A stretch of DNA of 64,000 bases from Herpetosiphon aurantiacus DSM 785 (GTDB lineage Bacteria > Chloroflexota > Chloroflexia > Chloroflexales > Herpetosiphonaceae): contig CP000875.1 in the NCBI GenBank assembly GCA_000018565.1, forward strand, positions 569,199 through 633,198, given 5' to 3'. The position numbers and the translations under genes are program-made. The notes beneath the pieces are model-generated. The model was not told the DNA's origin and did not search any database. It was given only the letters and a program-made list of their open reading frames with translations. Positions 26,695 through 60,314 of this stretch are shown here, piece by piece. Position 1 is the first letter of the stretch, and each line of letters opens with the position of its first letter.

Positions 26695-26770
26695 GACTCC
26701 GTAGCTCAGTGGATAGAGCGTTTCCCTGCGGAGGAAAAGGTCGGGCGTTCGACTCGCCCCGGAGTCGCCA
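26695..26770 (+). tRNA. tRNA-Arg (anticodon loop CTGCGGA, anticodon read as GCG), copy 1
   Basis: Cloverleaf: acceptor GACTCCG/CGGAGTC, D-arm GCTC-AGTGGATA-GAGC, anticodon stem TTTCC/GGAAA, T-arm GGGCG-TTCGACT-CGCCC, CCA encoded. Coordinates ±1. Confidence 0.7.
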
Positions 26771-26795
26771 CTTCTTTACAATCAAAACCCCACTA

Positions 26796-26887
26796 GGGAA
26801 GGTGGCAGAGTCCGGTTGAATGTACCGCCCTCGAAATGCGGCAAGGTGTAAAAACCTTCGTGGGTTCGAATCCCACCCTTCCCGCCA
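26796..26887 (+). tRNA. tRNA-Ser (anticodon CGA), class II with long variable arm
   Basis: Acceptor GGGAAGG/CCTTCCC, discriminator G, anticodon loop CTCGAAA, variable stem AAGG/CCTT, T-arm GTGGG-TTCGAAT-CCCAC, CCA encoded; one C·U mismatch at the anticodon-stem closing pair. Confidence 0.65.
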
Positions 26888-26947
26888 CCAACATGGCAGC
26901 ACTCGAAAGTGCTTTTTTTATTTAATGCAGGCTGTATTTCAAAATGC

Positions 26948-27023
26948 GACTCCGTAGCTCAGTGGATAGAGCGTTTCCCTGCGGAGGAAAAGGTCGGGCG
27001 TTCGACTCGCCCCGGAGTCGCCA
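26948..27023 (+). tRNA. tRNA-Arg (anticodon GCG as read), copy 2
   Basis: Identical in sequence to copy 1 over the tRNA body; followed by hairpin+T-run terminator (caccctagggtg ttttttt). Confidence 0.7.
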
Positions 27024-38127: not shown

Positions 38128-39315
38128 ATGAGCAACGAGCGCGAACCGGTGTTGTTGAGTGCTGCCCGCACGCCAATTGGCAAGTTTGGCGGGAGCCTCG
38201 CTGATTTAACTGCGCCTCAACTCGGTGCGATCGCAATTAAGGCCGCATTGGAGCGAGCTGGAATCAACGGCGATGTGGTTGATGAAGTGATTATGGGTAA
38301 TGTCGTTGGGGCGGGCTTGGGTCAAGCACCTGCGCGACAAGCAGCTTTGGGTGCTGGTGTGCCCGATAGCGTGAGCGCCCTAACAATTAATAAGGTTTGT
38401 GGTTCGGGCTTAAAGGCCGTGATGTTGGCCGCCAGCATGATCAAAGCTGGTGATGCTGAGCTGATTGTGGCTGGTGGCATGGAAAACATGTCGCGAGCGC
38501 CCTACCTTTTGCCTCAAGCCCGCTTTGGCTATCGGCTTGGCAACGGTGAAATTCAAGATGCCGTAGTGCATGATGGCTTGTGGTGTGCGGTTGAGCATCA
38601 TCATATGGGCAACTCAGCTGAGTGGGTCGCCGATGCTTGCAATGTTAGTCGCGAAATGCAAGATGAATTTGCCTACAATTCACATCGCAAAGCAGCAGCA
38701 GCGATTGCTCGTGGCGCGTTCAAAAACGAAATTGTGCCTGTTGAACTCAAGAGCCGCAAAGGCACAACCATTTTTGATACCGACGAGCCAGTTCGTGCCG
38801 ATAGCACGGTTGAAGCCTTGGCCAAATTAAAGCCAGCCTTCAAAGCTGATGGCTCTGTTACTGCTGGCAATGCACCTGGCATTACCGATGGCGCTTCGGC
38901 TTTGGTGGTCGCAAGCATGGCCAAAGCCCAACAACTGGGAGCCAAGCCGCTGGCCCGCATTACTGGCTATGCCCAGGCTGGCGTGAAACCACTCGAAATC
39001 TTTACAGCTCCAGCCTTTGCTGTGCGCCGCTTGCTTGAAGTAACCAACACCAGCTTGGCCGATTACGATTTGTATGAATTCAATGAAGCCTTTGCCGCCC
39101 AAGCGCTTGCCAACGGCCACGACCTCAAGATCGATTGGGATCGCTTGAATGTCAATGGTGGAGCGGTCGCTTTGGGTCACCCGATTGGGGCTAGCGGCGC
39201 ACGCGTATTGACGACGCTGGTGTATGCCTTGCAAGAACGTGGTGGCAAGCGTGGCCTCGCGACCCTCTGTTTAGGTGGTGGCGAAGCCGTTGCCTTGGCA
39301 ATTGAATTGATTTAA
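38128..39315 (+). CDS. Acetyl-CoA C-acetyltransferase (thiolase II)
   Basis: [11 protein letters not shown] active-site Cys, [16 protein letters not shown]-terminal [19 protein letters not shown] and CLGGGEAVA. Confidence 0.95.
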
Positions 39316-39368
39316 GCCAGAGCGGAGAAGGTGATGACGGCACCAAACAACCAACATAAGGAGGAACA

Positions 39369-39569
39369 ATGGGTACTGTTGAGTTGATCTCTACTTTGGA
39401 TGAAGGCGTTCGTGAAGGTCGAATTGCGCCCTACTTGGCCGATTTTATTGCAGCGCAAGCCCTGAATGTTTCAGCCGACGAAGTTGGCTTTAGCGAATGG
39501 GGCAGCCCCGACCACGACGTACTATCCTGCGATGGAGCAACCACCGAAGCCCTTTCCCGTCATCAATAA
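39369..39569 (+). CDS. Hypothetical small protein
   Basis: 66 aa ORF followed by strong GC hairpin (39575-39615). Confidence 0.25.
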   Translation: MGTVELISTLDEGVREGRIAPYLADFIAAQALNVSADEVGFSEWGSPDHDVLSCDGATTEALSRHQ

Positions 39570-39668
39570 AAAAGAGCGTGCGGCGCGACCAAATTGGTCG
39601 CGCCGCACGCTGCGATTGAGCCTAAAAAGTTTGTGAACCTTATCATTTGCAATTTTATTACGAGTGTG

Positions 39669-41183
39669 CTATACTCTCACGCGTTGGGCCGGTAGCTCAG
39701 TGGTAGAGCATCGGACTTTTAATCCGCTGGTCGTGGGTTCGATCCCCACCCGGCTCACCAAGCGGGATTGTTGCAAACTTCCTACGAGTTCCAGAAATGG
39801 TTCTCGTGGTTGGTAGGCGACAATCCCTTTTTTTGTGCCCCAAACGGCTGCAATGAGTGATTGTAAGGCTACGCGCTTCTCGGCTAATGCCCTCTTCTGC
39901 TTAAATGTCCAACTAATTGATTCTAATAAATCTAAGGCTTGCTCCATGTTAAAGGATGCAGCTGGTTTTTGGCGTGGTGCTTGGGCTTGAGCCAACAACG
40001 CTGATTTGCGCTGCTCATATTCATCAGCCCGGATGTGATCATTGAGAAACAGGCGCTTGAGTGCGGCAAGCTCGGCTTCAATGTTGGGGGCTTCGGGGGC
40101 TGGTTGTTGGTGTGCGTCCCACTGTTGCTGAGCAACCCGAAGAATATCGCGCTTCCAATCGCTGGGAAACGCCAAGGCATCAAGCACGGCAATCATATGC
40201 TGATCAAGCACATCGTTGCGCACCATGGCCATGGGGCATTGGTTGTAGCGGTGTTGGCTGCACTCATAGTACACAACGTTGGTTGTGCGCTTGTAGTGTT
40301 GCCACATGCGGCTGCCACATTGCTCACAATACAAAATTTCACTGAGCAGCCCACGGCCTTGGCTCACAGGAGTCCAGCCGCGCTTTTGGCCGCGCCGATC
40401 AAGCAAAACTTGTACCGCGTCCCATGTTTGTTGATCAATCAGCGCTTCATGTTGGCCAGCATAGGTTTGGCCTTTGTAGCTCACCTTGCCAATATAGGCT
40501 TGGTTGCGTAGCATCGATGCAACGTTGTCTTTGGTGTAGGGAACATAGCGCCCTTGTTGAGTGTTCCAAACTCGCGCACCACGTTGGTTCATGGCATCGG
40601 CGACGGTGCTGAAGCTATACAGTCCTGTGGCATAGAGTGTAAACAGCATGCGTTGATGCTCGGCATCGGCTGAAGGAACCAGCACCCCGTGCTCATTGCG
40701 TTGGTAGCCCGTTGGCACGGGGCCAGGTAATTTGCCTGATTCCGCAGCTGCACGGCGGGCACGTGCAACCCGTTCGCCTGTTAGTCGGCTATAGAGTTCG
40801 GCCCCAGCTCCTAACATCGTCAGATTGAAGCGGCCAGCAGCGGTATCCATCTCAATTGGCTCGGTAATTGAAATGAGTTGAATCCCCAGCGCGTGGAATT
40901 CATCAACCACCCGCAGCTGGAGCGAAGTGTTACGGGCGCAGCGGTCGAGCTTCCAAACTAACACAACATCAAAGCATCGTGGTTTCCGAGCGGCATCTTC
41001 ACGAAGCTGCATAAACGCGGGACGATCAGCATTGCGGCCACTCTTGCCAGCATCTTGATAGACCTGCACAACGTGCCAACCATGGCGTTGGGCATAGGCC
41101 TGACAATCACGCTCTTGGCTTGCAAGGCTGCTGTTTTCAGCTTGTTCACGGGTGGAAACCCGTGTATAGATAACGGCTCGCAT
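39669..41183 (-). CDS. Large serine recombinase (resolvase/invertase-domain site-specific integrase)
   Basis: N-terminal RAVIYTRVSTREQ catalytic Ser motif, recombinase domain, and zinc ribbon (CEQCGSRMW…YYECSQHRYNQCP). The C-terminal ~25 codons are the antisense of tRNA-Lys. Confidence 0.85.
   Translation of the reverse strand: MRAVIYTRVSTREQAENSSLASQERDCQAYAQRHGWHVVQVYQDAGKSGRNADRPAFMQLREDAARKPRCFDVVLVWKLDRCARNTSLQLRVVDEFHALGIQLISITEPIEMDTAAGRFNLTMLGAGAELYSRLTGERVARARRAAAESGKLPGPVPTGYQRNEHGVLVPSADAEHQRMLFTLYATGLYSFSTVADAMNQRGARVWNTQQGRYVPYTKDNVASMLRNQAYIGKVSYKGQTYAGQHEALIDQQTWDAVQVLLDRRGQKRGWTPVSQGRGLLSEILYCEQCGSRMWQHYKRTTNVVYYECSQHRYNQCPMAMVRNDVLDQHMIAVLDALAFPSDWKRDILRVAQQQWDAHQQPAPEAPNIEAELAALKRLFLNDHIRADEYEQRKSALLAQAQAPRQKPAASFNMEQALDLLESISWTFKQKRALAEKRVALQSLIAAVWGTKKGIVAYQPREPFLELVGSLQQSRLVSRVGIEPTTSGLKVRCSTTELPAQRVRV
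39686..39760 (+). tRNA. tRNA-Lys (anticodon TTT)
   Basis: Acceptor GGGCCGG/CCGGCTC (one G·U), D-arm GCTC-AGTGGTA-GAGC, anticodon loop CTTTTAA, T-arm GTGGG-TTCGATC-CCCAC, CCA encoded. Confidence 0.9.
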
Positions 41184-41328
41184 GAATAATCCCTTCTACG
41201 CTGCTTTCGATTGAGGCGGTTGTGCAGATGATTGATCCGCTTCTTGGTCTTTGTCAAGCATCAATGCAACCAACAAGGCTGCAAAGGCTTGAACAACGCT
41301 TTCACGTTGCCCATCGGCGTGGCCCCGT

Positions 41329-41568
41329 TCAATTGGTGTTGGTAGTGCTTGCATTGCGACCTTCCCATAATGGAATCAGAATCGTTCGTGCGCGGACGGT
41401 ATGATCAGAGAAATCAATATAGCCACGCCGTTTCAGTTCGAGTAAGGAGCGGCGACAAGGGCCGTATGGGATACCAACAGCCGTAGCCAATTCTTGAATC
41501 GATGCTTGCGGTTGCTGACTTACAGCGGCCCAGACTTTACGGACAAGATCAGTATTCATTCGGCTCAT
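41329..41568 (-). CDS. Small winged-HTH DNA-binding protein
   Basis: 79 aa; IQELATAVGIPYGPCRRSLLELKRRGYI HTH-like. Confidence 0.4.
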   Translation of the reverse strand: MSRMNTDLVRKVWAAVSQQPQASIQELATAVGIPYGPCRRSLLELKRRGYIDFSDHTVRARTILIPLWEGRNASTTNTN

Positions 41569-42275
41569 GCGGCTTTACCTCGTCGCTTGGCTAGATTCAA
41601 TCGTCGATAATCGGCAATGCCCGTGAAATCCAAGTGTTCAACCAGCGCAACATCAGCCAAACGGCTCGCGATACGCCCATCAAAGCGCTTCAAATCTTCG
41701 TTGGTGGTAAACACCGTTGGTAGCTCGCGGTTGTAGCGGTGATTGATCAGCTGAAAGTGTTTTTCTTTGGCCCAGCTAGTAAGGTGCTCAGTACCAGCAT
41801 CATCAAGCACCAGTAAGGGAACATTGCGAATGCGGTCAAAGCGCTGTTGAAACGATTCGCCTTGTTGGCCATCAAAGGTTTCGCGTAAGGCATCGAACAA
41901 ATCAGGCACTACGAAAAACATGGCGCTCTTGCCGCTGGCAACGACAGCATGAGCAATCGCAGCGGCTAGGTGGCTCTTGCCACAACCATATGGCCCCGAA
42001 AGTAATAACCAGCCTTTGGGGTCACTTGCATAATCCATGCAGGCCTGAGCCAGCGGTGCTACCTGTGGCAAGCTCACAAAGGTTTCAAATGTTTTTTTGG
42101 CGACAAGGCTTAAGTCGCCATGCTTCTGTAGTATGGTTGGTTTGCGACAGTCGCAAGGAATATACTCAATCGCCTTGCGGGTTTTATCATCGCTATAGCG
42201 ATAGCCGAGCACGCCACTATCTTGACAGCGCTCACAGGTGATCGTTTCTTCACGTTCCCAAACAGCATTGGTCAT
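41565..42275 (-). CDS. DnaC/IstB-like AAA+ ATPase (replicative helicase loader-like)
   Basis: Walker A LSGPYGCGKSHLAAAIA, Walker B LLVLDDAGTE, N-terminal zinc-binding CxxC…CDC. Confidence 0.75.
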   Translation of the reverse strand: MTNAVWEREETITCERCQDSGVLGYRYSDDKTRKAIEYIPCDCRKPTILQKHGDLSLVAKKTFETFVSLPQVAPLAQACMDYASDPKGWLLLSGPYGCGKSHLAAAIAHAVVASGKSAMFFVVPDLFDALRETFDGQQGESFQQRFDRIRNVPLLVLDDAGTEHLTSWAKEKHFQLINHRYNRELPTVFTTNEDLKRFDGRIASRLADVALVEHLDFTGIADYRRLNLAKRRGKAA

Positions 42276-43168
42276 TGTGTCCCCCCAGCAGCTTCAACCA
42301 GCCTGTTGGCCAATGGCCCCCAGCGCTTGTAGATCATTTCAGTCCAATCATCGTATTGGGCTTGAATTCGGCCATTCACCAGTTGGGCATATTGCAAGGC
42401 ATCACGTTGATTTGAGGTCAGGCCTTGCCATTGATCGAGTCCAATCCATGCAGGCCGCCGATCATCGTTGGCTGGTTCGGTGTGCGGTGGTGATGGTTCT
42501 GGCTCAGGAGTGAGGCGATGGTGAACGCCTGCTTTGAGGTCAAGGGCGATTTGGGCGGCGGGGTAGTTTGGCCCAACATGGTCAAGATAGGCTTGAATTA
42601 TTTCAAGCGGCTCATGGGCATGTTTTTTTGCCGTCCAAACTTGCCGATCCCGAAGTAGTCGATAGGTTTCAGTATCCGTTGGTTTTTTTGGCTGCGCAGC
42701 AGGAGTATTATTATTATTTCTTATTAATTGATTCTTGTTAATTAAACCATGCGACACTGGTGTCGCCTCTGACACGACACTGGTGTCGCCTCTGACGCGA
42801 TCCTGATGTCGTGTCTGACACGACACTGGTGTCGTCTCTTCGACACTGGTGTCGCGTTGCTGAGATTCAAACAGTTCGTAAATATTGCCATGGCGGGTTT
42901 GAATTGAGGCTAACCAGCCATAAGTTTCAAGTTCTTTAAGCCAGCGCTGGATTGTCCGAATATGGGGTACTTTGTCATCTTCAGCACATGCTTGGGCTAG
43001 GTCTTTTTGTTGGGGCCATGCAGCTTCCTCGTTTCCTGCATAGGATGCAAGAATACCCCACAGTAATCGCGCACTACGTGATAATCGCGAATCACGCAAG
43101 ATGGTATGGGGGATTGCAGTCCACCCATTGCGCCATCGCACCTGAATACGATCAGATTGTGGTGCCAT
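42272..43168 (-). CDS. Replication initiator-like protein (N-terminal winged HTH, DnaD/replisome-organizer-like) containing internal iterons
   Basis: wHTH segment IPHTILRDSRLSRSARLLWGILASYAGNEEAAWPQQKDLAQACAED…TIQRWLKELETYGWL; tandem palindromic iterons inside the ORF (42750-42857). Start chosen at an internal Met because the upstream extension overlaps the next ORF. Confidence 0.5.
   Translation of the reverse strand: MAPQSDRIQVRWRNGWTAIPHTILRDSRLSRSARLLWGILASYAGNEEAAWPQQKDLAQACAEDDKVPHIRTIQRWLKELETYGWLASIQTRHGNIYELFESQQRDTSVEETTPVSCQTRHQDRVRGDTSVVSEATPVSHGLINKNQLIRNNNNTPAAQPKKPTDTETYRLLRDRQVWTAKKHAHEPLEIIQAYLDHVGPNYPAAQIALDLKAGVHHRLTPEPEPSPPHTEPANDDRRPAWIGLDQWQGLTSNQRDALQYAQLVNGRIQAQYDDWTEMIYKRWGPLANRLVEAAGGTQ
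42750..42857. repeat. Tandem palindromic iterons (GACACTGGTGTCG core), candidate replication origin
   Basis: Four to five copies of gacactggtgtcg(c/t)ctct within about 110 bp, each itself an inverted repeat GACAC-TG-GTGTC; located inside the initiator ORF, as in lambda O / ori-in-rep arrangements. Confidence 0.6.
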
Positions 43169-43175
43169 ACAACGC

Positions 43176-43439
43176 CTACTTTCCATCATCAGAAGAATCG
43201 GTTGCACGTTTCGCCACAAGTTGACGAATAGTGTGCAACACACCCTGTTGCTTACGCCGGCTCTGCTCGGCATGCCTGAGTTCATCGAGCGATTCACGGC
43301 TCATGCTGTTAGCTCGCAGAGCTATATGCTTATGGGCATCACCAATTTCATTGTTGAGGGCGGTTGCATCTTCGACCAGGCCAATCAGTTCATCTTGCTT
43401 AGTTTTGCCCATCGTTATCCAACCCAACAATTTGGCCAC
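43176..43439 (-). CDS. Hypothetical small protein
   Basis: 87 aa ORF. Confidence 0.3.
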   Translation of the reverse strand: MAKLLGWITMGKTKQDELIGLVEDATALNNEIGDAHKHIALRANSMSRESLDELRHAEQSRRKQQGVLHTIRQLVAKRATDSSDDGK

Positions 43440-43740
43440 GGATAAAACCCGCAGCCTCGGCCTCAGTTTCGATTCGTTGTAAGCGTGACCGAATCCACCA
43501 AGCTACTAAATCAGCCGAGCCAGCCAGGCCAGCAATCGCCCAAAAACCGATAATCGTTGCTGGTTGGTTGAGTAATAGCGCCCAGATGGTGAGCACAATG
43601 CCAATACAGGCGGTGCCTACCGTATAGGCCTGCGGTCGTGATAAGCGCCAATGGCGATGCCAAAGCAATCCATGAATGGCAACCATCAACACGGCACAGG
43701 CAAGACCTGCTATGATGGCTGTCAAAATTGTGTAAAGCAT
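43399..43740 (-). CDS. Hypothetical membrane protein (3 TM)
   Basis: 113 aa hydrophobic ORF. Confidence 0.35.
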   Translation of the reverse strand: MLYTILTAIIAGLACAVLMVAIHGLLWHRHWRLSRPQAYTVGTACIGIVLTIWALLLNQPATIIGFWAIAGLAGSADLVAWWIRSRLQRIETEAEAAGFIRGQIVGLDNDGQN

Positions 43741-43803
43741 CTTGCCCTCGAATCCTTAAACAGGGATTGAAACAGAAATACGTTGTCACAAATCCGACGA
43801 TGA

Positions 43804-44019
43804 CTAGTAGGATGGTGTAGTGGATTCTGCGGTTTGATTCCGTTCAGCATCGTCGGCCAAGGCACGGAGTAGCTGGGGATGATTTAGTAGCCATAAGATG
43901 CCCTTTGGTAAATCACCGTTTGCATAACGCCACCTAGTGGCTTGGGATAAATTTTGTAACGGTATTTCTTTTAAGCATTCTCGGAATTTTTCGAGGTGTG
44001 GTTTAGGTGGAATTGTCAT
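43804..44019 (-). CDS. Hypothetical small protein
   Basis: 71 aa; divergent from XRE gene across an AT-rich promoter region. Confidence 0.3.
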   Translation of the reverse strand: MTIPPKPHLEKFRECLKEIPLQNLSQATRWRYANGDLPKGILWLLNHPQLLRALADDAERNQTAESTTPSY

Positions 44020-44142
44020 CCTAACCCCATTTCATATACGATATTCATATATGAAATATTATAGAAATAACTTGAGTTTGTCAAATTTGAAATTCAAATA
44101 TGATTATTTCATTTTTGAATTAGGCACGATATACTAGGGACT

Positions 44143-44565
44143 ATGAGTATGATTGCAACAGGCGCATATCTTTGGACACTACGAGAAGCCATTGGCTTAT
44201 CGCGTGATGACGTTGCCCATGAGGCTGGAACTAACAATGTTCAAATAATGAGGATAGAAAAAGGAGAGATTGATACAAGAGGATCATTGTTATTATCAGT
44301 TGTTAGAGCAGTTAAGGGGAATGCCGAGCATATTGCCCAGTTATTACTTGATGCTAGTGCTACTGAAGAAGATGGACGCAATCTAGCCATTTCTTGGATT
44401 AATCGAGAAACAACATCTGCAATAGATGAATTTATTGCAGATGTAAAAAAGGATAATAAAGTTTCTGAGGCGCTGAAACTTATTCAGCAGCTGGAGGCGC
44501 TTGATCCTTCTTCCCTTGATCGGTTGTTAGGTTATGGACAAAGTTTGCTTGATCGGAATCGCTAA
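44143..44565 (+). CDS. XRE/Cro-CI family HTH regulator
   Basis: LWTLREAIGLSRDDVAHEAGTNNVQIMRIEKGE HTH; AT-rich, TATACT -10 element upstream. Confidence 0.65.
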   Translation: MSMIATGAYLWTLREAIGLSRDDVAHEAGTNNVQIMRIEKGEIDTRGSLLLSVVRAVKGNAEHIAQLLLDASATEEDGRNLAISWINRETTSAIDEFIADVKKDNKVSEALKLIQQLEALDPSSLDRLLGYGQSLLDRNR

Positions 44566-45014
44566 GACGTTCGCGTAGATACGCTAAGATTTGCTTTACC
44601 AAAGAATCTTTTTCTTCAACTAGCAGGATTAATAAAAGGAGACAGGCTGTTCCAGTAAAAAAAACTCGTTGATCTAACATTTCAAAAAGGGTGGATGACA
44701 TAAATATTATGAGGCACGCCCAAGTTCCATTGTTTATCTTTTTCATCTCTTATCCCTATACATAGGCAAACGTATGAGGGAGTATACCATTTTTTATCGT
44801 CCCCGAACATGAAAATTTGATGACAACGAATCTAGGTAGTGCCTTTGTGGCGCTAGAAACAATACCTAGCATAGTAATGCAGTTAATGAAATCCATACAT
44901 TTATGGGAGTACCATGAAGGAGGTAGTTAAAATCCCCCTCGATGAGAAGTACATTCTGTGATATGCTCTGTACTCGATAGTACCATTCACTCTTGATGCT
45001 TTGTGGAGGTTAGC

Positions 45015-46079
45015 ATGGTTGGCGCAGTCATTGATCTATTCTGTGGAGTTGGTGGGCTAACCCACGGGCTTATTCTTGAAGGTTTTGGCGTACTGGCAGG
45101 GATTGATAACGATCCTTCTTGTAAGTATGCCTATGAGCAAAATAATAGAACTCGTTTTATTGAAAAGTCTATTACTGAAGTTGATGGCAGAGAGTTAAAT
45201 GCCCTCTATCCCAATAATCAACATAAAATCTTAGTAGGCTGTGCCCCATGCCAAGATTTTTCTCAATATACGAAGAAGAGTCGTACTGGAACAAAGTGGC
45301 AATTACTCACAGAATTTTCGCGCCTTATTAGAGAGATCGAGCCTGATATTATATCAATGGAAAATGTTCCTGAGGTTCGAACATTCAATAGAGGGGAAGT
45401 TTTTAACAATTTTATTCAAGCACTTGAACAATTAGGGTATCACGTTTCGCATAGCGTGGTGCATTGTCCTGATTATGGAATTCCGCAGCAACGTGACCGA
45501 CTAGTCTTATTTGCTGCTAAACAGGGCGTTATTAAGATTATACCCCCAACCCACACTCCTGAGAACTATCGAACTGTACGTGAAGTTATTGGTTCTCTGC
45601 CACCAATTACTGCTGGCGGACACTGGGAGGGTGATAGCATGCATGCAGCCAGCAGACTAGAAGATATAAACCTTCGACGTATTCAGCATTCTGTGCCTGG
45701 TGGTACTTGGGCCGATTGGCCGGAAGAATTGATTGCAGAATGTCATAAAAAGGAAAGCGGTGAGAGTTATGGGAGCGTCTATGGTCGAATGGAATGGGAT
45801 AAAGTAGCACCTACCATCACTACACAATGCAATGGGTATGGTAATGGTCGCTTTGGTCATCCAGAGCAGGATCGCGCTATTTCGCTCCGTGAGGCTGCCT
45901 TACTTCAGACATTTCCGCGAAGTTATCAATTTGCCCCTGAAGGCCAACTGAAATTTAAGACAGTTAGTCGTCAAATAGGGAATGCTGTTCCGGTCGCACT
46001 AGGTCGTGTTATTGCAAAAAGTATTAAGCGTTTTTTGGAGGGTTTACATGAGCGACAGCGGGTACGAATTATCATTTAG
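45015..46079 (+). CDS. DNA cytosine-5 methyltransferase
   Basis: Motif I DLFCGVGG, motif IV GCAPCQDFS, motif VI ENV, motif VIII QQRDRLVLF, motif X GNAVPV; GGAGG RBS before ATG 45015. Confidence 0.9.
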   Translation: MVGAVIDLFCGVGGLTHGLILEGFGVLAGIDNDPSCKYAYEQNNRTRFIEKSITEVDGRELNALYPNNQHKILVGCAPCQDFSQYTKKSRTGTKWQLLTEFSRLIREIEPDIISMENVPEVRTFNRGEVFNNFIQALEQLGYHVSHSVVHCPDYGIPQQRDRLVLFAAKQGVIKIIPPTHTPENYRTVREVIGSLPPITAGGHWEGDSMHAASRLEDINLRRIQHSVPGGTWADWPEELIAECHKKESGESYGSVYGRMEWDKVAPTITTQCNGYGNGRFGHPEQDRAISLREAALLQTFPRSYQFAPEGQLKFKTVSRQIGNAVPVALGRVIAKSIKRFLEGLHERQRVRIII

Positions 46080-47877
46080 TCTTAATACATTGAATCACTT
46101 AAGCGAAGGTCTTTATAGTAATATTCCTGCGGTTTTATCTGAATTAGTTGCTAATGCTTGGGATGCCGATGCAACTGAGGTATCTATTAATATACGACAA
46201 GATGAAATAGTCATTCAAGATAATGGTATAGGAATGTCAATTGAGGATGCTAATACTAAGTTCTTACGAATTGGGCATCAAAAGAGAGAAGATTCAGCCA
46301 ACACTATAAGTGGACGGCATGTTATGGGCAGGAAAGGGATCGGTATACTGGCAATATTTGGTATAGCCAATATTGCTGAGGTTTATTCTTGTAAGGATGG
46401 AGTACCCCATGGATTTATAATTCGTAAAGGCGATATAGAAAGAGGGATAAGTAGCGATGTAACGTTGTATAGGCCATCACCGGTTCCTCAAGATGATTTA
46501 TCTATTGAATCAGGAACAAAGATTATATTACGAGAAATAAAATCTTCTATTGTAAATGCGGAGAAAACTCTAAGAACTGATCTTGCCCGGAGATTTACAA
46601 TTATTAATAATAATTGTAATTTTTCTGTAATTATTAATAATATACCAATTAGTGATAATGATCGTGATTATTTAAATAAAGTACAATTTCTTTGGTATCT
46701 TGGTGAAGAAAGTAGTAAATATGCTGATTTTTTTACTAAGCTAAAGAAATCATTTGAAATTACGAATCTAGTAGATGGAATGTCAGGTATAACTGTTAAG
46801 GGTTGGATTGGTACTGTATATCGTCCAAGTAATATTCCAACGAGCCACCGTACCATCTCTATTTTTGCTCATGGTAAAATGATTCAAGAAGATATTTTAA
46901 TAGATATAACTGATGCGGGTGTATATCGACAATATATCATTGGTGAAATTGAAGCAGATTTTATGGATAGCGATGATGAAGATGACATTATTACCAGTAA
47001 TAGACAAAGAATAAAGCAAACTGATCCTAGATATCTCAAGCTACTACAGTATGTCAAGGCAGATATTATGCGAGTTATTGCATCAATGTGGACTAACTTG
47101 CGAAAGGAATACCCATCTAAGCCAAAAAAAGAGGAAGTTAATGATAGTTCATCATCAAAAGATGCCAATTCTTCTGAACAAGAGAATACAAATGCTAGTA
47201 GTGATTCATCAAACACTACCGATGCTAGTAGTGATTCATCAAACACTACCGATGCTAGTAGTGAGACGAATGATGGTGATGTGGAAGATAATTCTTTTTT
47301 TGATGATGATATTCCTGAACCTAGCCCTCCACCTAAACAAGAAATTACTACTGCATTTAGAGAGATGAAGAATCTTGTTAAGAATAGTAATATTCCCGAT
47401 CAAATGAAAAATATTATTTTATATGATATTCAACAAGCAGCCTATGCTTATAAAGGAACATCATTTAAAGCTTGTATTGTAATGTTGGGAGCTATTCTAG
47501 AAGGTGTTATGCTTGGAACAATCCAGAGGACGGATGTACTAGAATACTTGATTACTTTACAGACAGTACCAAAGCCATTAAGTGATTTAGGCCCTAGAAA
47601 TCCTAAATTTGCTGATCGTACAGTGCTAGCCCAGTATATAGGGACTACCTTTTCATTTCAGGACTGTAAGGAAATAATAGAGCTATGTGTACAAGGTACT
47701 AATAAACTAGGTGTCGATATACTTCAAACGGTTAGAAATTCTATACATCCAGGTTCAGTATTAAAAGATATGAAACAACTAGCAAGGTTCAATCATCAAA
47801 GCGCTGTTGGTTACATTGCCAAACTACATGAAATTATTAATTTAGTGATTCTATGGAATCCTCCATCTATTCCATAG
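46048..47877 (+). CDS. GHKL (MORC/MutL-like, HATPase_c_3-type) ATPase with low-complexity repeat linker and unassigned C-terminal domain
   Basis: Bergerat-fold motifs: N-box SELVANAWDADA, G1 box IQDNGIGM, G2 box GRKGIGILAIFG. Ser/Asp/Thr-rich tandem repeat (SSDSSNTTDA x2). About 230 aa C-terminal domain without recognisable nuclease motifs. Start overlaps the MTase stop by 32 nt (translational coupling). Confidence 0.75.
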   Translation: MSDSGYELSFSLNTLNHLSEGLYSNIPAVLSELVANAWDADATEVSINIRQDEIVIQDNGIGMSIEDANTKFLRIGHQKREDSANTISGRHVMGRKGIGILAIFGIANIAEVYSCKDGVPHGFIIRKGDIERGISSDVTLYRPSPVPQDDLSIESGTKIILREIKSSIVNAEKTLRTDLARRFTIINNNCNFSVIINNIPISDNDRDYLNKVQFLWYLGEESSKYADFFTKLKKSFEITNLVDGMSGITVKGWIGTVYRPSNIPTSHRTISIFAHGKMIQEDILIDITDAGVYRQYIIGEIEADFMDSDDEDDIITSNRQRIKQTDPRYLKLLQYVKADIMRVIASMWTNLRKEYPSKPKKEEVNDSSSSKDANSSEQENTNASSDSSNTTDASSDSSNTTDASSETNDGDVEDNSFFDDDIPEPSPPPKQEITTAFREMKNLVKNSNIPDQMKNIILYDIQQAAYAYKGTSFKACIVMLGAILEGVMLGTIQRTDVLEYLITLQTVPKPLSDLGPRNPKFADRTVLAQYIGTTFSFQDCKEIIELCVQGTNKLGVDILQTVRNSIHPGSVLKDMKQLARFNHQSAVGYIAKLHEIINLVILWNPPSIP

Positions 47878-47892
47878 GGATAGTTAAGGGGT

Positions 47893-47940
47893 AAAAAAGC
47901 ACCGTGGGCTGCTTGGCTCCACGGTGCTTTTTTATTTTTA
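47893..47940 (+). terminator. Rho-independent terminator after MTase-GHKL operon
   Basis: agcaccgtgg…ccacggtgct hairpin then TTTTTTATTTTT. Confidence 0.65.
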
Positions 47941-48238
47941 CCTCTTGAATACCCCTTGATGACCACAATAACTTGCAGCATTAAGTTCTGCTTCATTTAG
48001 CTGTAGGGAGAATATCGACTACGCTGTTTGATCATAGCCGTGGGCGTGCTCGAGCTGTTTGGCTAATGTTTGGGCTGGTGTTGGCTATCCTACTGTATTC
48101 TCCTCAAATACCGTCGTATTGTGCCTATCCATTCATAAGAAATCAGCCAAAAATCTTAATTCACTCCATCATGATCCAAAAAATGGGTCTGAATTGCACC
48201 TAACTTAGTTGAAGGAAACGCTTTGTTTAGGAGACGCT

Positions 48239-49321
48239 ATGTCATACCCACAACCCTCTATGCCACCTTATATGCAACCAGTACCACCAAACAAGCCAGG
48301 CTGGCGGAAAAATATCAAATGGATTGCAATTGGCAGTGTCGTGTTTGTGTGTTCATGTTTGGGACTCGCCTATAACCAAGGCTCAAAGCTACAGGCCGAG
48401 CAGACGGCTACGGCTATTGTAGTTGCTAATGTTACCGCAACCGCCCAGCAAAGCAATACGAATGCAACCAGTGAGGCGGTTGCGATTGCGGCGACCGTCG
48501 AGCAGGATAATGCCAATGCTACGAAGGAAGCTATTGCAATTGCGGCGACCCAGACTGAAGAGGCTCGGCCAACCAATACTCCAGTGCCAACCAATACACC
48601 GCTTCCGCCAACGGCAACGCCATTCGTAGCAGAGATTGGCCAAAGTAATCCGATTGGCCAATGGGAAATTACCATCCTCGATATCAGCATTGCGAATGAT
48701 TTTAGCGAAGCGGCAACTGGTAAGTGGCTGGTTGTCCATGGGACGATAACCAACAAGGGCGATGACCACCTGATTGGTAAGCAAGAATTGAAGGTACGAA
48801 CAGATACCAAAACAATTGAATTAGACCGGAATGCTTCCAACCAAGCGGCAAAACGCCTCAATGTTACCTCGATCGGCGATTTAGGCGGGAAGATGATTAA
48901 GCGTGGTGAACGCGAAGAATGGGCAATTGCTTTCGATATTCCCCAAGACAGCAATGAGTTATGGTTTACGCTTGAAGGGACTGATGCCGTGAAGTTTGGG
49001 GCGATTGGTGAGACGGCAGAATTACCAACGGTAACACCACGTCCAACTGCTACGGCGGTTCCTGATCTTGCCACCGAGGCGGGTGCTATTGATGTCTGTA
49101 AGCAGGCAGTCAAGCAACGCCTTACCCATCCCTCAACCGCTGATTTCCCATGGTTCGATTATCAAACCGTGCAGGAAGGCGATCTAACTTGGTATGTCCA
49201 ATCGACAGTCAAAGCGAAGAACTCGTTTAATCTGGAAGTGGAATTTGTATGGGTTTGTAAAGTAACTTATGAAGGCAATAGCCGATGGAATATTGATGAT
49301 GTACAAATGGCTGAACAATAG
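48239..49321 (+). CDS. Secreted/membrane-anchored DUF4352-like domain protein with Pro/Thr-rich linker
   Basis: N-terminal Pro-rich region then TM; central segment GKWLVVHGTITNKGDDHLIGKQELKVRTDT…FDIPQD resembles DUF4352 (phage/lipoprotein-associated). Confidence 0.5.
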   Translation: MSYPQPSMPPYMQPVPPNKPGWRKNIKWIAIGSVVFVCSCLGLAYNQGSKLQAEQTATAIVVANVTATAQQSNTNATSEAVAIAATVEQDNANATKEAIAIAATQTEEARPTNTPVPTNTPLPPTATPFVAEIGQSNPIGQWEITILDISIANDFSEAATGKWLVVHGTITNKGDDHLIGKQELKVRTDTKTIELDRNASNQAAKRLNVTSIGDLGGKMIKRGEREEWAIAFDIPQDSNELWFTLEGTDAVKFGAIGETAELPTVTPRPTATAVPDLATEAGAIDVCKQAVKQRLTHPSTADFPWFDYQTVQEGDLTWYVQSTVKAKNSFNLEVEFVWVCKVTYEGNSRWNIDDVQMAEQ

Positions 49322-52473: not shown

Positions 52474-52929
52474 ATGACACAACCATTCACCACTATCAAA
52501 CCCAAGCTTGAAGCCCCGTTCCCCATGGATATTATTGAGATAAAGCCCACTGTTGTCACGAAGGATAAGACCCGCGCTTTAGCTATTGCCTATGCCGAAG
52601 TCCGAGCCTATCAGGACAGGCTTGATGCTGTGGTTGGTGGTGAATGGGCTGTGACCTATCGCCCCTTAGGGCCAGGTGCGGTTATTTGCCAGCTGACCCT
52701 AGTTGGCATCACTCGTGAAGATGTTGGGGAAGCCGAGCAAACTGACCCGAATAAAGCGACGGTTGCCGTTGCCCAAGCGTTCAAACGCGCCTGCTCGGCA
52801 TTCGGGCTGGGCCGCTATCTGTACAGCATGCCAAAAGTATGGGCCGAATACGATCAGGAAAAAAAGTGCTTTGTGTACCCTGATCGCATTATTGCCCATA
52901 TGTATAAGCAGATTGGGATAAAGGTATGA
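52474..52929 (+). CDS. Rad52/Sak-family single-strand annealing protein
   Basis: …ATVAVAQAFKRACSAFGLGRYLY… matches the conserved Rad52/22 core (KRA..FGiGRYLY). Confidence 0.65.
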   Translation: MTQPFTTIKPKLEAPFPMDIIEIKPTVVTKDKTRALAIAYAEVRAYQDRLDAVVGGEWAVTYRPLGPGAVICQLTLVGITREDVGEAEQTDPNKATVAVAQAFKRACSAFGLGRYLYSMPKVWAEYDQEKKCFVYPDRIIAHMYKQIGIKV

Positions 52930-53148: not shown

Positions 53149-53604
53149 ATGGCAGCGGATACCAAGATCATCATCGTTGAAGGACAAGAGTTTCGGGTAC
53201 CGAGCGCAATGGAGATTGATGCAATTCGTTCCCATCTTGCCACCACATACCCTTCAGTAACATCGGCAATCATCACCAAGGGCAAACGCACAATTGAGGG
53301 TGAAGAGTACGAAACCATCGAGTTCGTCAAAAAAGTTGGCACAAAAGGCCTTGATTTAGTTGCAGCCTTGGAAGAGATCCCCCCTGCTTGGGATCTCTTC
53401 GATCTCTTCAGCACCAAACCACCAGTACCTATAGAGAAGTTACTAGCTGGTGGTTTGACCTTTGGCGAAGCCATGCTCATGAATTTGGATACTGAGCTAA
53501 GCAAACGATTTGAAAAAAAATATAACCGCGAGGAATCAGCACTATGCCTGCACTTAGCCGAATTGCCCGCAAGCGCCGATCAAGATCTGCCATTGGGTTG
53601 GTAA
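53149..53604 (+). CDS. Candidate ubiquitin-like (beta-grasp, ThiS/MoaD-like) protein with C-terminal extension
   Basis: N-terminal about 70 aa KIIIVEGQEFRVPSAMEIDAIRSHL…TIEGEEYETIEFVKKVGTKG has a ThiS/MoaD-like pattern; downstream KLLAGG motif; lies immediately upstream of the E2-JAB-E1 genes. Confidence 0.35.
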   Translation: MAADTKIIIVEGQEFRVPSAMEIDAIRSHLATTYPSVTSAIITKGKRTIEGEEYETIEFVKKVGTKGLDLVAALEEIPPAWDLFDLFSTKPPVPIEKLLAGGLTFGEAMLMNLDTELSKRFEKKYNREESALCLHLAELPASADQDLPLGW

Positions 53605-54542
53605 AGGTTAGCTCTTTGACCCCTGCGGGCTTTAGTGATGAAACCATCATTAAAGAATGGAATGATGTACTGCATGGGGTTCGGCTAATGCAGCGTTACG
53701 ATCCTAGTTATTATGAACAGATTCGCGATGAACCATTGACGTTGGTAAAGGGTAAGTCTTGTTTTATCAGAATGGCATATCTGGTTGAAGATCTTGTTTC
53801 CACAACCATGAATTTTCAAGATTATATGGAGTGGAGACAAGAGGACTTCGATCCCTATGATGATGCCGATGATATTGCCAATGATGATCCTGCCCTCTCG
53901 GAAAGCTATAGTCTTGATCTGCGATTTGAGATTGCCGGGCAATGGCTTGATGAAACCCCTTTAGCCGTTTTTGGTTTACCGATTCATGCTGGTGAAGCTG
54001 GAGATATGTTTCATCTTGCAATGTGGCTTACGCGGTATCCATTTCATACTACACCCTACGATGTTATGCGGTTCGATGGTGATCGCTATTTCGTGAAAGA
54101 TAAAGAAATTTTTCAAGCGCTGAAAACATTTGACCCTTTGCCTGAGCATATTCATATCCATGGATTAATTCAAGAATTAAATCGCAAAAAGATCTATGGG
54201 TTTGAGCTTGGAACCTTGATTCAATATGCATTGCGCATTACTGGTGATGTGTTTGCCGATGTTTCTATGGCAGAACTGGAAGTTGGTGGATGGGATGACG
54301 GCATAGATTGGGCTAACCCTGATATGGTCGCCTCAGTCCAAGATCGTCAACGTCGAGCCGATGCGCTGTGCAGCCAATTCCATGACTTTGCAGCATGGCT
54401 TGATCGCAACAATGAATATGCGATCGATATTTTGCTCAATATTTATGGAGCCGCTGCGGTCGTACTGGCTAATGATACCCAACGCCCAGCAACCTTAATG
54501 GAGTTAGTCAATGCCAACGATGAAGTACCCCAGACCATATAA
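53544..54542 (+). CDS. Hypothetical protein (332 aa) within Ubl-conjugation cassette
   Basis: No recognisable motif. Confidence 0.35.
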   Translation: MPALSRIARKRRSRSAIGLVKVSSLTPAGFSDETIIKEWNDVLHGVRLMQRYDPSYYEQIRDEPLTLVKGKSCFIRMAYLVEDLVSTTMNFQDYMEWRQEDFDPYDDADDIANDDPALSESYSLDLRFEIAGQWLDETPLAVFGLPIHAGEAGDMFHLAMWLTRYPFHTTPYDVMRFDGDRYFVKDKEIFQALKTFDPLPEHIHIHGLIQELNRKKIYGFELGTLIQYALRITGDVFADVSMAELEVGGWDDGIDWANPDMVASVQDRQRRADALCSQFHDFAAWLDRNNEYAIDILLNIYGAAAVVLANDTQRPATLMELVNANDEVPQTI

Positions 54543-55191
54543 GCGAGAAATCGTGTTTGATAAAAGCCCGAAGCTTCAGCTAGATTTCTTCGATAATGCG
54601 GTGATTATGACCCGCCGTGAGCCATCTGGTTGGTCATCATACCCAGTCGATGTTAGTGAGGTTGCAAAGGTATTAAGCGGTATCCCCCAATCATCGGGAT
54701 TGCTCCCTCAAAATACCTTAGGCTATGGAAGCTATAAAGGCAGTTCCTTCTACTGCATGTATATTCCACCAAAATCCATCACGATAGAGCTTGCCAATAA
54801 TGATCGGTTAACGATTCCCATTCCACCGCTCGTTTGGCGTGGTTGGAAACAAAACTATCAGATTTGGGCATTAGCCACTGAAGCCTATCCTTTAGCGTCA
54901 ACACCCTTATTTATGGCTCCCTTCCCTAATGTGTACCCGAATGCGATGATTTGCTGGGGTGATAGTGATGATCGTTTGCCTGCTGGCCCAAGCACGATGC
55001 AGGCAATGCTTGACCTCTTTTTGATAGGCAGTCGTTTCAATACCCATTTGGTTGGTGGTAAGAGCATGCGTTCATCTGGCAATATTATCAATCTGTACCA
55101 TAGGATTAAAGGTAAGGCTATGTATCCACTTCATGATTTATGTGCTACTGATTTAGTTCTTGAAAACGTGTTGGAAGGGGGATTTGCATGA
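54511..55191 (+). CDS. E2-like (UBC-fold) ubiquitin-conjugating enzyme homolog
   Basis: FPNVYPNAMICWG aligns with the eukaryotic E2 HPNIYSNGSIC(LDIL) active-site motif (Asn and catalytic Cys at identical spacing). Confidence 0.55.
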   Translation: MPTMKYPRPYKREIVFDKSPKLQLDFFDNAVIMTRREPSGWSSYPVDVSEVAKVLSGIPQSSGLLPQNTLGYGSYKGSSFYCMYIPPKSITIELANNDRLTIPIPPLVWRGWKQNYQIWALATEAYPLASTPLFMAPFPNVYPNAMICWGDSDDRLPAGPSTMQAMLDLFLIGSRFNTHLVGGKSMRSSGNIINLYHRIKGKAMYPLHDLCATDLVLENVLEGGFA

Positions 55192-55841
55192 TCCCAAACC
55201 TTCACCGCTACCATATTGTTACTGAAGCGGAACCATATCCCCCTAATCAGCCAGGCTTGACGTGGCTGATCGCAGCGAACGGCATCTTCAAAAGTGGCTG
55301 CGATCGCCATCAGCGCTTGATTATTCAAGTCTCCGAGCAGCGCATTGATCTACCTGGCATGGTCGCGATTATGCCGATGATTCACTGGTTCAATTATCCC
55401 AAACGCTTACCATCTGCTTGGTTATCAATGCTGCTTGCAGATGCCCAAAAGGCTTCTATTATCACCAATGGAGTAGCACGACCAATCGAGAAACAATACT
55501 TTGTAGTTAATAAAGATGATCGGCTGAAGCTGATTATTGCTCCCCAACAAGCTAGTGCCTTGAGGGTGCATTATCAAATGCCGTCGGCACCAATCTTTGT
55601 TGATATTCATAGCCATCATGGTATGCCTGCTTACTTTTCGGCCACCGATGATGCTGATGATACAGGCCTCTCAATTTCATGTGTGATCGGCAACATCTAT
55701 AGCAACCCTGAAATCATTTGTCGATTAAACATCTATGGCCAACATCAAGTTGTGCCTATTACCACCATTTTTGATGGTTGTGGCCCTTTTGCCGATGTGG
55801 GACAACGAGAGGGGGATCGCTATGCAAATGCTCAGTTTTGA
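55188..55841 (+). CDS. JAB/JAMM (MPN+) metalloprotease
   Basis: IHSHHGMPAYFSATDDADD fits the JAMM motif HxHx7Sx2D. Confidence 0.65.
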   Translation: MIPNLHRYHIVTEAEPYPPNQPGLTWLIAANGIFKSGCDRHQRLIIQVSEQRIDLPGMVAIMPMIHWFNYPKRLPSAWLSMLLADAQKASIITNGVARPIEKQYFVVNKDDRLKLIIAPQQASALRVHYQMPSAPIFVDIHSHHGMPAYFSATDDADDTGLSISCVIGNIYSNPEIICRLNIYGQHQVVPITTIFDGCGPFADVGQREGDRYANAQF

Positions 55842-56700
55842 GCCTATTGCCCCGTTTGTAATAGGAAACCAGTCACGCTTTCATATCACTATTGTTGGGG
55901 CTGGTGGTACTGGCTCTTATATCGTGCAAACTGTGGCTCGGTTAATGGCGCATGCCAATGAGAAGGGTTCCCCCAAAATCGATGTAACGCTGGTTGATGG
56001 CGATACAATTGAAGCAAAAAATATTGGTCGTCAACTCTTTGCCCCAGCCGAAATAGGCCGAAATAAAGCACAATCATTGGCTACTCGGTTCAACCAAGCC
56101 CTAGGCCTCAAAATACAAGCTATACCCACAATGATCGATCAATATTCGCTTCCGCATGTTGATCGCTATCAATGGCATCAATCGGCTGCGCTTGATAAGC
56201 GGCCCTACTCAATTGTTGTGGGCGCTGTCGATAATGCCGAAGCACGCAAGGTTATTCATGATGGTTTAGCTAAATATGTCTTTAACCTATGGATTGATAG
56301 TGGCAACCACGAGCATGGGGGACAAGTGCTTGTAGGCAACTGCGTAGCACCGCATAAGCTAAAAGGAAGCTTTGCCCTTGAGGGAATGGTGCAATCATTA
56401 CCAGCACCATCGTTGATGGCACCATCGCTGATAACACCACCAGAGCCACTGCCTGAATCGCAGCAGCTTGATTGTGCAACCGCGATGGAGAATAACCGCC
56501 AATCCTTACTTATTAATCAGCAAATGGCCTCAATTGTTGGCCAATACTTACATCAAATCATCTTTACCCAACGCTTGACCACTTTTGAAACAATTGTCGA
56601 TATGAGCACACTCACGATGCGAAGCACCCCAATCACGGTTTCTAATGTGGCTCAATGTCTTGGGGTAACGTCTGCATTTTTAAAAGGAATTAACGCATGA
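55822..56700 (+). CDS. E1-like ThiF/MoeB-family adenylyltransferase
   Basis: Rossmann ITIVGAGGTGSY; DGDTIEAKNIGRQLF (ThiF D-x-D-x-x-E-x-x-N-x-x-RQ); GAVDNAEAR. Confidence 0.7.
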   Translation: MQMLSFEPIAPFVIGNQSRFHITIVGAGGTGSYIVQTVARLMAHANEKGSPKIDVTLVDGDTIEAKNIGRQLFAPAEIGRNKAQSLATRFNQALGLKIQAIPTMIDQYSLPHVDRYQWHQSAALDKRPYSIVVGAVDNAEARKVIHDGLAKYVFNLWIDSGNHEHGGQVLVGNCVAPHKLKGSFALEGMVQSLPAPSLMAPSLITPPEPLPESQQLDCATAMENNRQSLLINQQMASIVGQYLHQIIFTQRLTTFETIVDMSTLTMRSTPITVSNVAQCLGVTSAFLKGINA

Positions 56701-58891: not shown

Positions 58892-59375
58892 TGAGAAGGC
58901 AGTCATACATCAAGTATGACCGCCTTCTCATATTTAAACCGCTAGTTGAGCCGGCAATACATCCAACTAGGGCAAGGGCAATTCCACCACCACCTCAACC
59001 GTATCTGTGACTGGCAGATACTTCATTTCGCCGACGGTAAAGCTCCGCAACTCTGGCGATGCCAGGAGCAGTGGCAGATTGCTAATCGTGATCGTATCGT
59101 TGTGCTGAATTAAATCCAGAATGTATTGTGGTTACCTGCTCCAGCTAGAGGTGTAATGTACCCAAACTGGTAATTATGATTGTTTTGGACACAATTGCAG
59201 ACCATCTTAATTACCATTCATATCGTGTTCATATCGTATTCAAACCGCATTCAGATGGTATACAAACCGCCAAAAAAAGAATAGCCCATCAGAAAGGCCT
59301 AAACTGGCCGTTTGGTCGTGCCGACATTCTTTAACAGGCTGCATCGCCACCGTTTTCATCCTGAGGAGGTTGTTC

Positions 59376-60314
59376 ATGGCTTCATCACTCGCGATTGGCC
59401 TCAATCCCATCGAGTTACACATCCTGTTGCTCGTCGCTCGGTTGGGCCGCTTGCTTTCACGTCACCTTCGCACAGCGTGGGGCCATCCGTTTACGGTGAC
59501 GATTCAAACGGTTAATCGCACCTTGGCCAAGCTCGTCGATGCCAAACTGCTCACCTATTGCGAACACTTTCAATCGCATGGCTATGACCCACGTGGTGCG
59601 CTGGGCTGGACACGCCATGGCCGCTTATATAGCCTCACGCCCCTCGGCTGGGAGATCGTCAAACAGGCTTTTCCGATGCTTGAAGAAGGCAGTGAGCGGC
59701 TGGCTCCCACGATGTTCAATCCCCAACATCAAGCGGAACACCAGATTGAATATGCCGAGGTCATCACCAGTTTGATTCAGTCATTACCCTACGTGCCTGG
59801 CATTGTCGGGATGAGCAGTTATATCGAAATGGACTTAGGGCCAACCGCACGGCCACGCGCCGACGGCATTGTCGTGGTGCGCCGCTGGGCCGATGCAACG
59901 CAGACCGATCGTGAGCGCTCGTCGCTCTATCCATGGCTGGGGGTTAGCCAACAAGCAGGCCAGATCGATCAACTGTATGCCATTGAGATTGATCGGGGAA
60001 CCGAGGAACTGAGCATTATTACGGGTAAGGCCCACTCCTATGGGGAGTTATATCGCTCGAAGTATTGGGAAGGGCGCTATCAATGGCCGCTGATTGCCTT
60101 TACCGTGCCGAGCGAACGCCGCAAACGGGCTGTGCTCGATGCGTGGGAAATCGGCTGGCCCGGCAGTCAGCTGCTGATTGCCACTATCGACGAGGTGCGT
60201 GAGTCAGGTATTCTCACGCCGATCTGGACAACCCAGTACACCAAGGATGGGCAACGTATCCAGCAGCCACATCGGTTTTTGAAGGTAAAGTGGTTTGAGA
60301 AGATTGTGGCGTAG
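59376..60314 (+). CDS. Hypothetical protein with N-terminal winged-HTH-like segment
   Basis: GAGGAGG RBS 6 nt before ATG 59376; LLLVARLGRLLSRHLRTAWG…LAKLVDAKLL HTH-like. Confidence 0.4.
   Translation: MASSLAIGLNPIELHILLLVARLGRLLSRHLRTAWGHPFTVTIQTVNRTLAKLVDAKLLTYCEHFQSHGYDPRGALGWTRHGRLYSLTPLGWEIVKQAFPMLEEGSERLAPTMFNPQHQAEHQIEYAEVITSLIQSLPYVPGIVGMSSYIEMDLGPTARPRADGIVVVRRWADATQTDRERSSLYPWLGVSQQAGQIDQLYAIEIDRGTEELSIITGKAHSYGELYRSKYWEGRYQWPLIAFTVPSERRKRAVLDAWEIGWPGSQLLIATIDEVRESGILTPIWTTQYTKDGQRIQQPHRFLKVKWFEKIVA

Follow-up and report, generated by a model that had tools for sequence, protein, structure and literature searches.

Does an array of short palindromic repeats that lies inside the coding region of a replication-initiator gene mark the replication origin of the integrated element to which that gene belongs? 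The question is raised by a stretch of 64,000 nucleotides of Herpetosiphon aurantiacus DSM 785 (contig CP000875.1, positions 569,199 to 633,198), which we call the window and to which all coordinates below refer. We consider it likely that five iterons at 42752-42854, together with an A+T-rich tract at 42706-42746, form the initiator-bound vegetative (theta-type) replication origin of the element, and that this origin is placed inside the initiator gene itself. The features by which a lambda-type embedded origin can be tested for in a sequence are all present here, namely repeats with dyad symmetry, a position between the two domains of the initiator, an A+T-rich tract, a helicase loader and a repeat type cognate to the initiator.

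The repeat array and the A+T-rich tract

Tandem Repeats Finder reports a single tandem array at 42752-42855, with a period of 23, 4.7 copies and 80% matches (consensus CGACACTGGTGTCGCCTCTGACA). Exact copies of the 14-mer CGACACTGGTGTCG start at 42752, 42775, 42821 and 42841, and a degenerate copy with three mismatches, CGATCCTGATGTCG, stands in register at 42798. Numbered from the side of the A+T-rich tract, the iterons are found at 42752..42765, 42775..42788, 42798..42811, 42821..42834 and 42841..42854, with start-to-start spacings of 23, 23, 23 and 20 bp, or about two helical turns. As the gene is read from the minus strand, iteron 5 comes first in the direction of transcription and iteron 1, nearest to the A+T-rich tract, comes last. 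The iteron is a near-perfect inverted repeat, with 6-bp arms (CGACAC and GTGTCG) around a 2-bp centre. On the coding strand, iteron 3 reads CGACATCAGGATCG, close to the CGACACCAGGATCG units of three distant relatives that are discussed below, and the central dinucleotide of iteron 5 differs in the two other Herpetosiphon copies of the gene (coding strand CGACACCCGTGTCG).

An earlier note on this DNA had described four to five tandem copies of a unit, each an internal inverted repeat, within the coding region of a winged helix-turn-helix initiator-like gene. The count is accurate (four exact copies and one degenerate), the inverted repeat is seen in the two arms, and the array does lie inside the minus-strand open reading frame (ORF) 42272..43297, whose product matches the family HTH_36 with E=4e-11. 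The unit given there, GACACTGGTGTCG(C/T)CTCT, describes copies 1, 2 and 4; copy 5 ends in ...CGCGTTG and copy 3 is degenerate.

The A+T-rich tract, which that note did not mention, is a candidate DNA-unwinding element. It is 41 nt long, with 10% guanine plus cytosine (GC) over 40 nt, encodes ...LINKNQLIRNNNN... and begins 5 bp past iteron 1, which places it downstream of the array as the initiator gene is transcribed. It contains the only 40-mer with a GC content of 10% or less in positions 1-44000 of the window.

Outside the array, no copy of CGACACTGGTGTCG that is exact or has one or two mismatches was found in the 64 kb, all promoter regions included. With up to three mismatches allowed on both strands there are 14 matches, compared to 2.9 +/- 1.8 in 100 dinucleotide shuffles, and none of the 100 shuffles reaches 14. 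DnaA-box-like sites are absent from the vicinity of the array, the nearest ones being at 36518 and 51183.

Constraint on the DNA and on the encoded peptide

Repeats within a gene may simply reflect, at the DNA level, a peptide linker of repetitive or low-complexity sequence that is under selection as protein. The region does encode a predicted disordered linker rich in S, T, P and V, and three distant relatives (L013-L015) have in-frame units (24, 21 and 24 nt) that translate into a TPGS peptide repeat. The five copies in the window, however, occupy codon phases 2, 1, 0, 2 and 1, that is, all three phases, and translate as DTSV, TTPVS, RHQDR, DTSV and ATPVS. Periods of 23 and 20 bp move successive copies into different phases, so that the peptide itself does not repeat. 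The same DNA core also reads DTGV, DTSV or TPVS in different relatives.

The initiator recurs at 90-91% identity in Herpetosiphon llansteffanensis CA052B and in H. giganteus DSM 589. Conservation was assessed in a three-way alignment of these two copies with the window gene (87-91% amino-acid identity and about 92% nucleotide identity). The block of iterons and A+T-rich tract (158 nt) has 4 variable columns out of 158, whereas the remaining 760 columns of the gene include 84 variable ones (p=3e-4). Among third codon positions none of the 53 in the block is variable, against 52 of the 252 elsewhere in the gene (p=2.8e-5). The four changes within the block are all at codon position 1 or 2, and they affect spacers between iterons, the central dinucleotide of one iteron or the A+T-rich tract. 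Invariant third positions continue without a break for 59 codons at 42860-42683, which coincides with the block; no other such run in the gene exceeds 20 codons, and the 50 nt just outside the block are the most variable stretch of the gene (14 of 50 columns changed). As far as this alignment tells, the DNA is most constrained where the protein is structurally least constrained, which is the signature of a cis-acting site.

An uninterrupted run of 59 invariant third positions, with changes that are only non-synonymous, is the opposite of what protein-level selection leaves behind. We rejected the peptide explanation on the codon phases and the synonymous-site invariance, and its chance of being right seems negligible. 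It is also what the earlier note had named as refuting its proposal, that is, repeats that merely encode a repetitive peptide; the copies were found in three codon phases and are conserved at third positions, at the level of the DNA.

The initiator gene and the replication operon

We took the initiator gene as 42272-43186 on the minus strand (304 amino acids). The listed ORF reaches a GTG at 43297; since an identical 304-residue protein in the database (P0001) begins with the ATG at 43186, where it overlaps the stop of the upstream ORF, that ATG is probably the real start. In a Pfam scan the product matches HTH_36 (ORF residues 71-129) and no other family among matches with E<=0.01, and among PHROG families it matches 'replication initiation protein' and 'DnaD-like' families, and weakly also 'O-like' families (3.4e-5 and 5e-4). 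In an AlphaFold model, residues 14-105 (42872-43147) form a winged helix, with a block-mean predicted local distance difference test (pLDDT) score of about 60-88; residues 110-171 (42674-42859, pLDDT below 35) are a predicted disordered linker, and residues 172-304 (42275-42673) make up a helical C-terminal domain. As the predicted linker corresponds to 42674-42859, the iterons and the A+T-rich tract encode exactly the linker.

Searches of curated collections gave no relative of the protein. A PDB sequence search returned no relative, there is no NCBIfam model for it, and neither blastn nor tblastn against GenBank phages (50,697 records for tblastn) nor tblastn against 72,556 PLSDB plasmids found a relative of the initiator. 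Scans of viral contigs with the alignments A4 and A5 likewise returned none.

The gene directly downstream encodes a DnaC/IstB-type AAA+ helicase loader (41565..42275, minus strand; IstB_IS21 6e-17; phrog_50 'DnaC-like helicase loader' 9e-47), and its start overlaps the stop codon of the initiator. The operon ends with a small winged-helix protein of 79 residues (41329..41568, minus strand; HTH_24). On the other side, three small ORFs lie between the initiator and an A+T-rich divergent control region at 44020..44142 (18-30% GC), which has promoter-like sites on both strands. The leftward one (44084->44056, TTGACA-17-TAATAT) faces the initiator operon and the rightward one faces a cI-like helix-turn-helix gene at 44143-44565. 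Palindromes are found in this region as well, TTTCATATA...TATATGAAA at about 44030-44062 and also AAATTTGAAATTCAAAT. Placed between the cI-like gene and the leftward operon, 44020-44142 looks in its sequence like an immunity switch with its operators.

The control region has to be considered together with a second explanation, in which the repeats are sites bound by the initiator or another regulator for the purpose of control (autoregulatory roadblock, 'handcuffing' or incompatibility) and the origin is elsewhere, for example at 44020-44142. Plasmid iterons serve both initiation and control, 44020-44142 is a second A+T-rich region that bears palindromes, and the small winged-helix protein and the cI-like protein are both encoded nearby. 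However, neither the promoter regions nor any other part of the window outside the array contains the motif, and an extreme A+T-rich tract abuts the array, as it does in ori-lambda and in one relative described below (L004). Furthermore, the position of the region near 44.05 kb, between divergent promoter-like sites and beside a cI-like gene, is the usual layout of immunity operators, and the repeat type tracks the type of initiator N-terminal domain and not the neighbouring genes. We regard a purely regulatory role as improbable.

Related initiators and their repeats

A full HMMER scan with the N-terminal domain found 342 relatives. The closest of these have linkers with DTGV(T/S)S or (A/T)TPVS peptides, which correspond to the GACACnnGTGTC core read in different frames, and relatives that are 33-47% identical in the N-terminal domain keep CGACAC-type repeats directly after the winged helix. 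In one of them (L012), GTGACACGGGTGTCAC occurs at least twice with a period of about 22.5. The relatives L013-L015, with initiators 33-38% identical to that of the window, carry three to four copies of CGACACCAGGATC(G/A) directly after the winged helix, at spacings of 24, 21 and 24 bp, and their unit CGACACCAGGATCG is nearly identical to the degenerate third iteron of the window. These three have other C-terminal domains, different neighbouring genes and no DnaC-like neighbour. Since C-terminal domain and neighbours change among these relatives, what consistently accompanies the CGACAC repeats is the HTH_36-type winged helix and nothing else. Its helix 76-88 contains R77, R81 and W82, which are invariant across the N-domain set and are plausible recognition residues.

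Distant full-length matches share only the C-terminal domain (TYRLLRDRQVW...IQAYLDHVGP.YPAAQIA.DLKAGVH) and have unrelated N-terminal domains. One of these (L004) has an N-terminal domain of the Phage_rep_O type and, at the equivalent position, about six copies of GTCAACGAAGTAGAC with spacings of 22, 17, 17, 23 and 23 bp, directly followed by a tract of 12.5% GC. Another (L003) has a third type of N-terminal domain on the shared C-terminal domain and, again at that position, two 41-nt repeats TGTGATTCTAATGGGACACCTCCCnCAACAGAATCGCA with a partial copy at 6424-6530 of its contig; a separate 11-bp tandem repeat, AGACTACCCAG, with 2.3 copies is seen at 6539-6563. In both L003 and L004 the next gene is DnaC/IstB-like. 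Three types of N-terminal domain on one type of C-terminal domain are accompanied by three unrelated types of repeat.

The contigs of L013, L014 and L015, with their in-frame CGACACCAGGATCG iterons, come from different samples and are 7358, 7358 and 7359 bp long; for P0156 the longest on record is 7414 bp. These contigs probably represent small circular replicons in their entirety.

The same relatives bear on a further explanation, in which the array acts as a nucleic-acid structure, be it a stack of mRNA hairpins with an effect on the translation of the initiator message or on its stability, a cruciform or a recombination site. The RNA of 42700-42870 folds with -60.8 kcal/mol (z=-6.0 compared to shuffles), and the gene for a large serine recombinase lies at a distance of 1.1 kb. 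On the other hand, any array of palindromes folds well, and the iterons of lambda also do so (PMC7466680). The CGACACCAGGATCG units of L013-L015 have lost most of the dyad symmetry but kept the CGACAC-CAG sequence and the spacing; therefore, it is the sequence that is conserved and not the pairing. Moreover, neither a terminator-like site nor an Rfam family was found at the array, and the element is integrated at its tRNA-Lys end, away from the array. A structural role of this kind seems to us very improbable, and an origin bound by the initiator is the reading that we carry forward.

Comparison with known origins

In ori-lambda, which lies in the middle of gene O, four 19-bp iterons that are imperfect inverted repeats are bound by O, and an adjoining A+T-rich tract is unwound (PMC7466680). 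The window shares with lambda, lambdoid and Stx phages a set of 4-6 direct repeats, themselves imperfect inverted repeats, midway through the gene that encodes the initiator (PMC7466680). As in lambda O, the repeats encode the linker, which is non-essential there, between the N-terminal origin-binding domain and the C-terminal domain (PMC7466680). The A+T-rich tract is on the same, downstream side of the repeats as in lambda, and the helicase-loader gene (P in lambda) is directly downstream. The N-terminal domain and iterons also appear to be swapped together, as a cassette, among relatives with a shared C-terminal domain. Cassette exchange of N-terminal domain and iterons is established knowledge for lambdoid phages.

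Differences from lambda are seen in the iteron, a 14-bp CGACACYRGTGTCG here compared to a 19-bp unit, in the loader, which is of the DnaC/IstB-type AAA+ class and not lambda P, in the integrase, which is a large serine recombinase, and in the host, a filamentous glider of the Chloroflexota. The initiator does not belong to Phage_rep_O (PF04492) either, as the Pfam scan gives HTH_36 only, and a profile comparison with a PF04492-type homologue gave no alignment of the N-terminal domain. The earlier note had called the arrangement lambda O-like, with an origin inside the rep gene. Judged by sequence comparison, this is right for the architecture, in which every expectation at the level of the sequence is borne out, and does not extend to the protein family; the accompanying proposal, that the array likely marks the replication origin of the element, is supported by the sequence-level tests.

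A second known case is phage SPP1, with G38P as initiator, G39P as loader and G40P as helicase. Its oriL lies within gene 38, where G38P binds the repeats and an unwinding element is found beside them (PMC5737612). The likeness to the window consists of an origin inside the initiator gene, of repeats beside an A+T-rich unwinding element, and of an initiator without an AAA+ domain that is followed by a loader gene (PMC5737612). Unlike in SPP1, no element-encoded helicase is seen beside the loader, and the SPP1 repeats are arranged otherwise (AB boxes). The G38P family (pfam09524, named in PMC5737612) is absent from the Pfam matches of the initiator at E<=0.01.

Iteron-type theta plasmids (Rep_3/RepA, pi, TrfA) share with the window a winged-helix initiator and direct iterons beside an A+T-rich unwinding element. 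Classical iteron plasmids have their iterons outside rep, whereas in the window they are inside the gene; RepA_N plasmids do have origin repeats inside the rep coding sequence. The initiator has no Pfam match to Rep_3 or RepA_N. The position of the iterons in the gene, together with the lack of DnaA boxes nearby and of any PLSDB match, places it outside the Rep_3 iteron-plasmid class.

A possible course of initiation

By analogy with lambda O and ori-lambda and with SPP1 G38P and oriL, we propose how binding, melting, helicase loading and use of the origin may proceed. On derepression, the leftward operon would be transcribed from the control region near 44.05 kb, and this transcription would cross the origin, as in lambda. 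Dimers of the N-terminal winged-helix domain would bind each dyad-symmetric iteron, and the spacing of about 22-23 bp would let the bound dimers build a wrapped nucleoprotein complex on about 100 bp of DNA. On supercoiled DNA, this complex would melt the adjoining A+T-rich tract at 42706-42746. The C-terminal domain of the initiator would then recruit the DnaC-like loader, which is encoded directly downstream, and bring the host replicative helicase onto the opened DNA.

Several points weigh against the origin reading and should be kept in mind. The role as an origin rests on sequence, for the protein of the window and for every detectable relative alike. Only three sequences enter the conservation test, and two of them are very similar. 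The AlphaFold model was built from an alignment of eight sequences and is of modest quality, with a mean pLDDT of 59.7, and a Foldseek search of PDB gave generic winged-helix matches only, which were non-significant (E>0.3). The A+T-rich tract is weak or absent in the relatives L003, L012 and L013, and the strong RNA folding given above is a feature that the structural explanation would also account for. As for the element itself, the initiators of H. llansteffanensis and H. giganteus both sit in 48-kb stretches that are listed as proviruses in IMG/VR, and both loci are collinear with window positions 38274-48297 at about 92% nucleotide identity, including the tRNA-Lys gene and the host flank; the window thus carries the integrated element that these two genomes have. 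Since the tRNA-Lys site is the same and the host flank is about 92% identical in all three, the element may have come down by vertical inheritance and could be inactive. Finally, no virion or phage structural genes were found among the ORFs scanned at 45-64 kb in the window. The element may not be a conventional prophage, or the structural genes may lie beyond the window.

The integrated element and its cargo

The gene for the large serine recombinase is at the left end of the element (39669..41183, minus strand; Resolvase, Recombinase and Zn_ribbon_recom domains), and the tRNA-Lys(ttt) gene is at 39686-39760 on the plus strand. The recombinase ORF runs for about 92 nt antisense through the tRNA gene, with its last approximately 30 residues encoded by the complement of the tRNA, and it has the same length of 504 amino acids in H. 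giganteus (L002). This arrangement suggests an attachment site inside the 3' end of the recombinase gene, such that integration would rewrite the C-terminus of the protein. A similar case is intP of Mx8. Serine recombinases leave no long duplication of the attachment site.

To the right of the replication module the GC content falls to 35-49%, and the cargo genes there encode DNA methyltransferases, a HATPase protein, a ubiquitin-like/E2/JAB/E1 operon, a Replic_Relax protein and a type IIG-like restriction-modification enzyme. A C5 DNA methyltransferase (45003-46079) and a HATPase_c_3 protein (46006-47877) make up a block of 35-41% GC at 44886-47895. This block is kept in H. giganteus, while H. 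llansteffanensis has other DNA in its place, and it can be described as a variable cargo slot beside the immunity region. The operon at 53149-56700 encodes a ubiquitin-like protein (53149-53604), a protein of 332 residues, Prok-E2_D (54511-55191), Prok-JAB (55188-55841) and a ThiF-type E1 (55735-56700), and it resembles the ubiquitin-like 'Bil'-type anti-phage systems. The island also contains a Rad52-like annealing protein (52474-52929) and a Replic_Relax family protein with a MarR-like N-terminus (59370-60314).

At 61106-64000, an ORF of more than 964 residues with N6_Mtase and Eco57I-type domains, of a type IIG-like restriction-modification enzyme, runs off the end of the window. Its best relative on a viral contig is 54% identical (L016), and neither this gene nor an ORF of 412 amino acids was found in the Herpetosiphon uncultivated virus genomes. 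In the host part of the window there is a tRNA cluster, Arg(gcg)-Ser(cga)-Arg(gcg), at 26695-27023, in which the tRNA-Arg is duplicated.

A broader reading takes these observations together. HTH_36-type initiators with CGACAC-type iterons in the linker would be a distinct replicon family, found on several kinds of mobile elements, from replicons of about 7.4 kb to integrated islands, with none in the curated phage and plasmid collections. The element in the window would then be a non-phage, defence-carrying integrative element that replicates as an episome from this origin after excision, and not a lambda-like prophage. We offer this as a tentative reading that is rather unlikely to hold as a whole.

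Implications

The origin proposed here is a well-supported but unsurprising prediction, and conceptually it contains nothing new. Ever since lambda, textbooks have described origins that sit inside the gene of their initiator, together with cognate iterons and an A+T-rich tract. The interest lies more in the group of organisms. To our knowledge, genetic tools for the Chloroflexota are scarce, and hardly any of their phages or plasmids have been characterised. The initiator and candidate origin (about 1.6 kb with the loader) provide a pair for Herpetosiphon and the Chloroflexota, and could possibly serve as the basis of a shuttle vector. The relatives, with their conserved CGACAC half-site and invariant R77, R81 and W82 in a likely recognition helix, make up a small comparative set for the recognition of iterons by winged-helix proteins. 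The analysis also helps with annotation of a protein family that is at present labelled just 'helix-turn-helix domain'.

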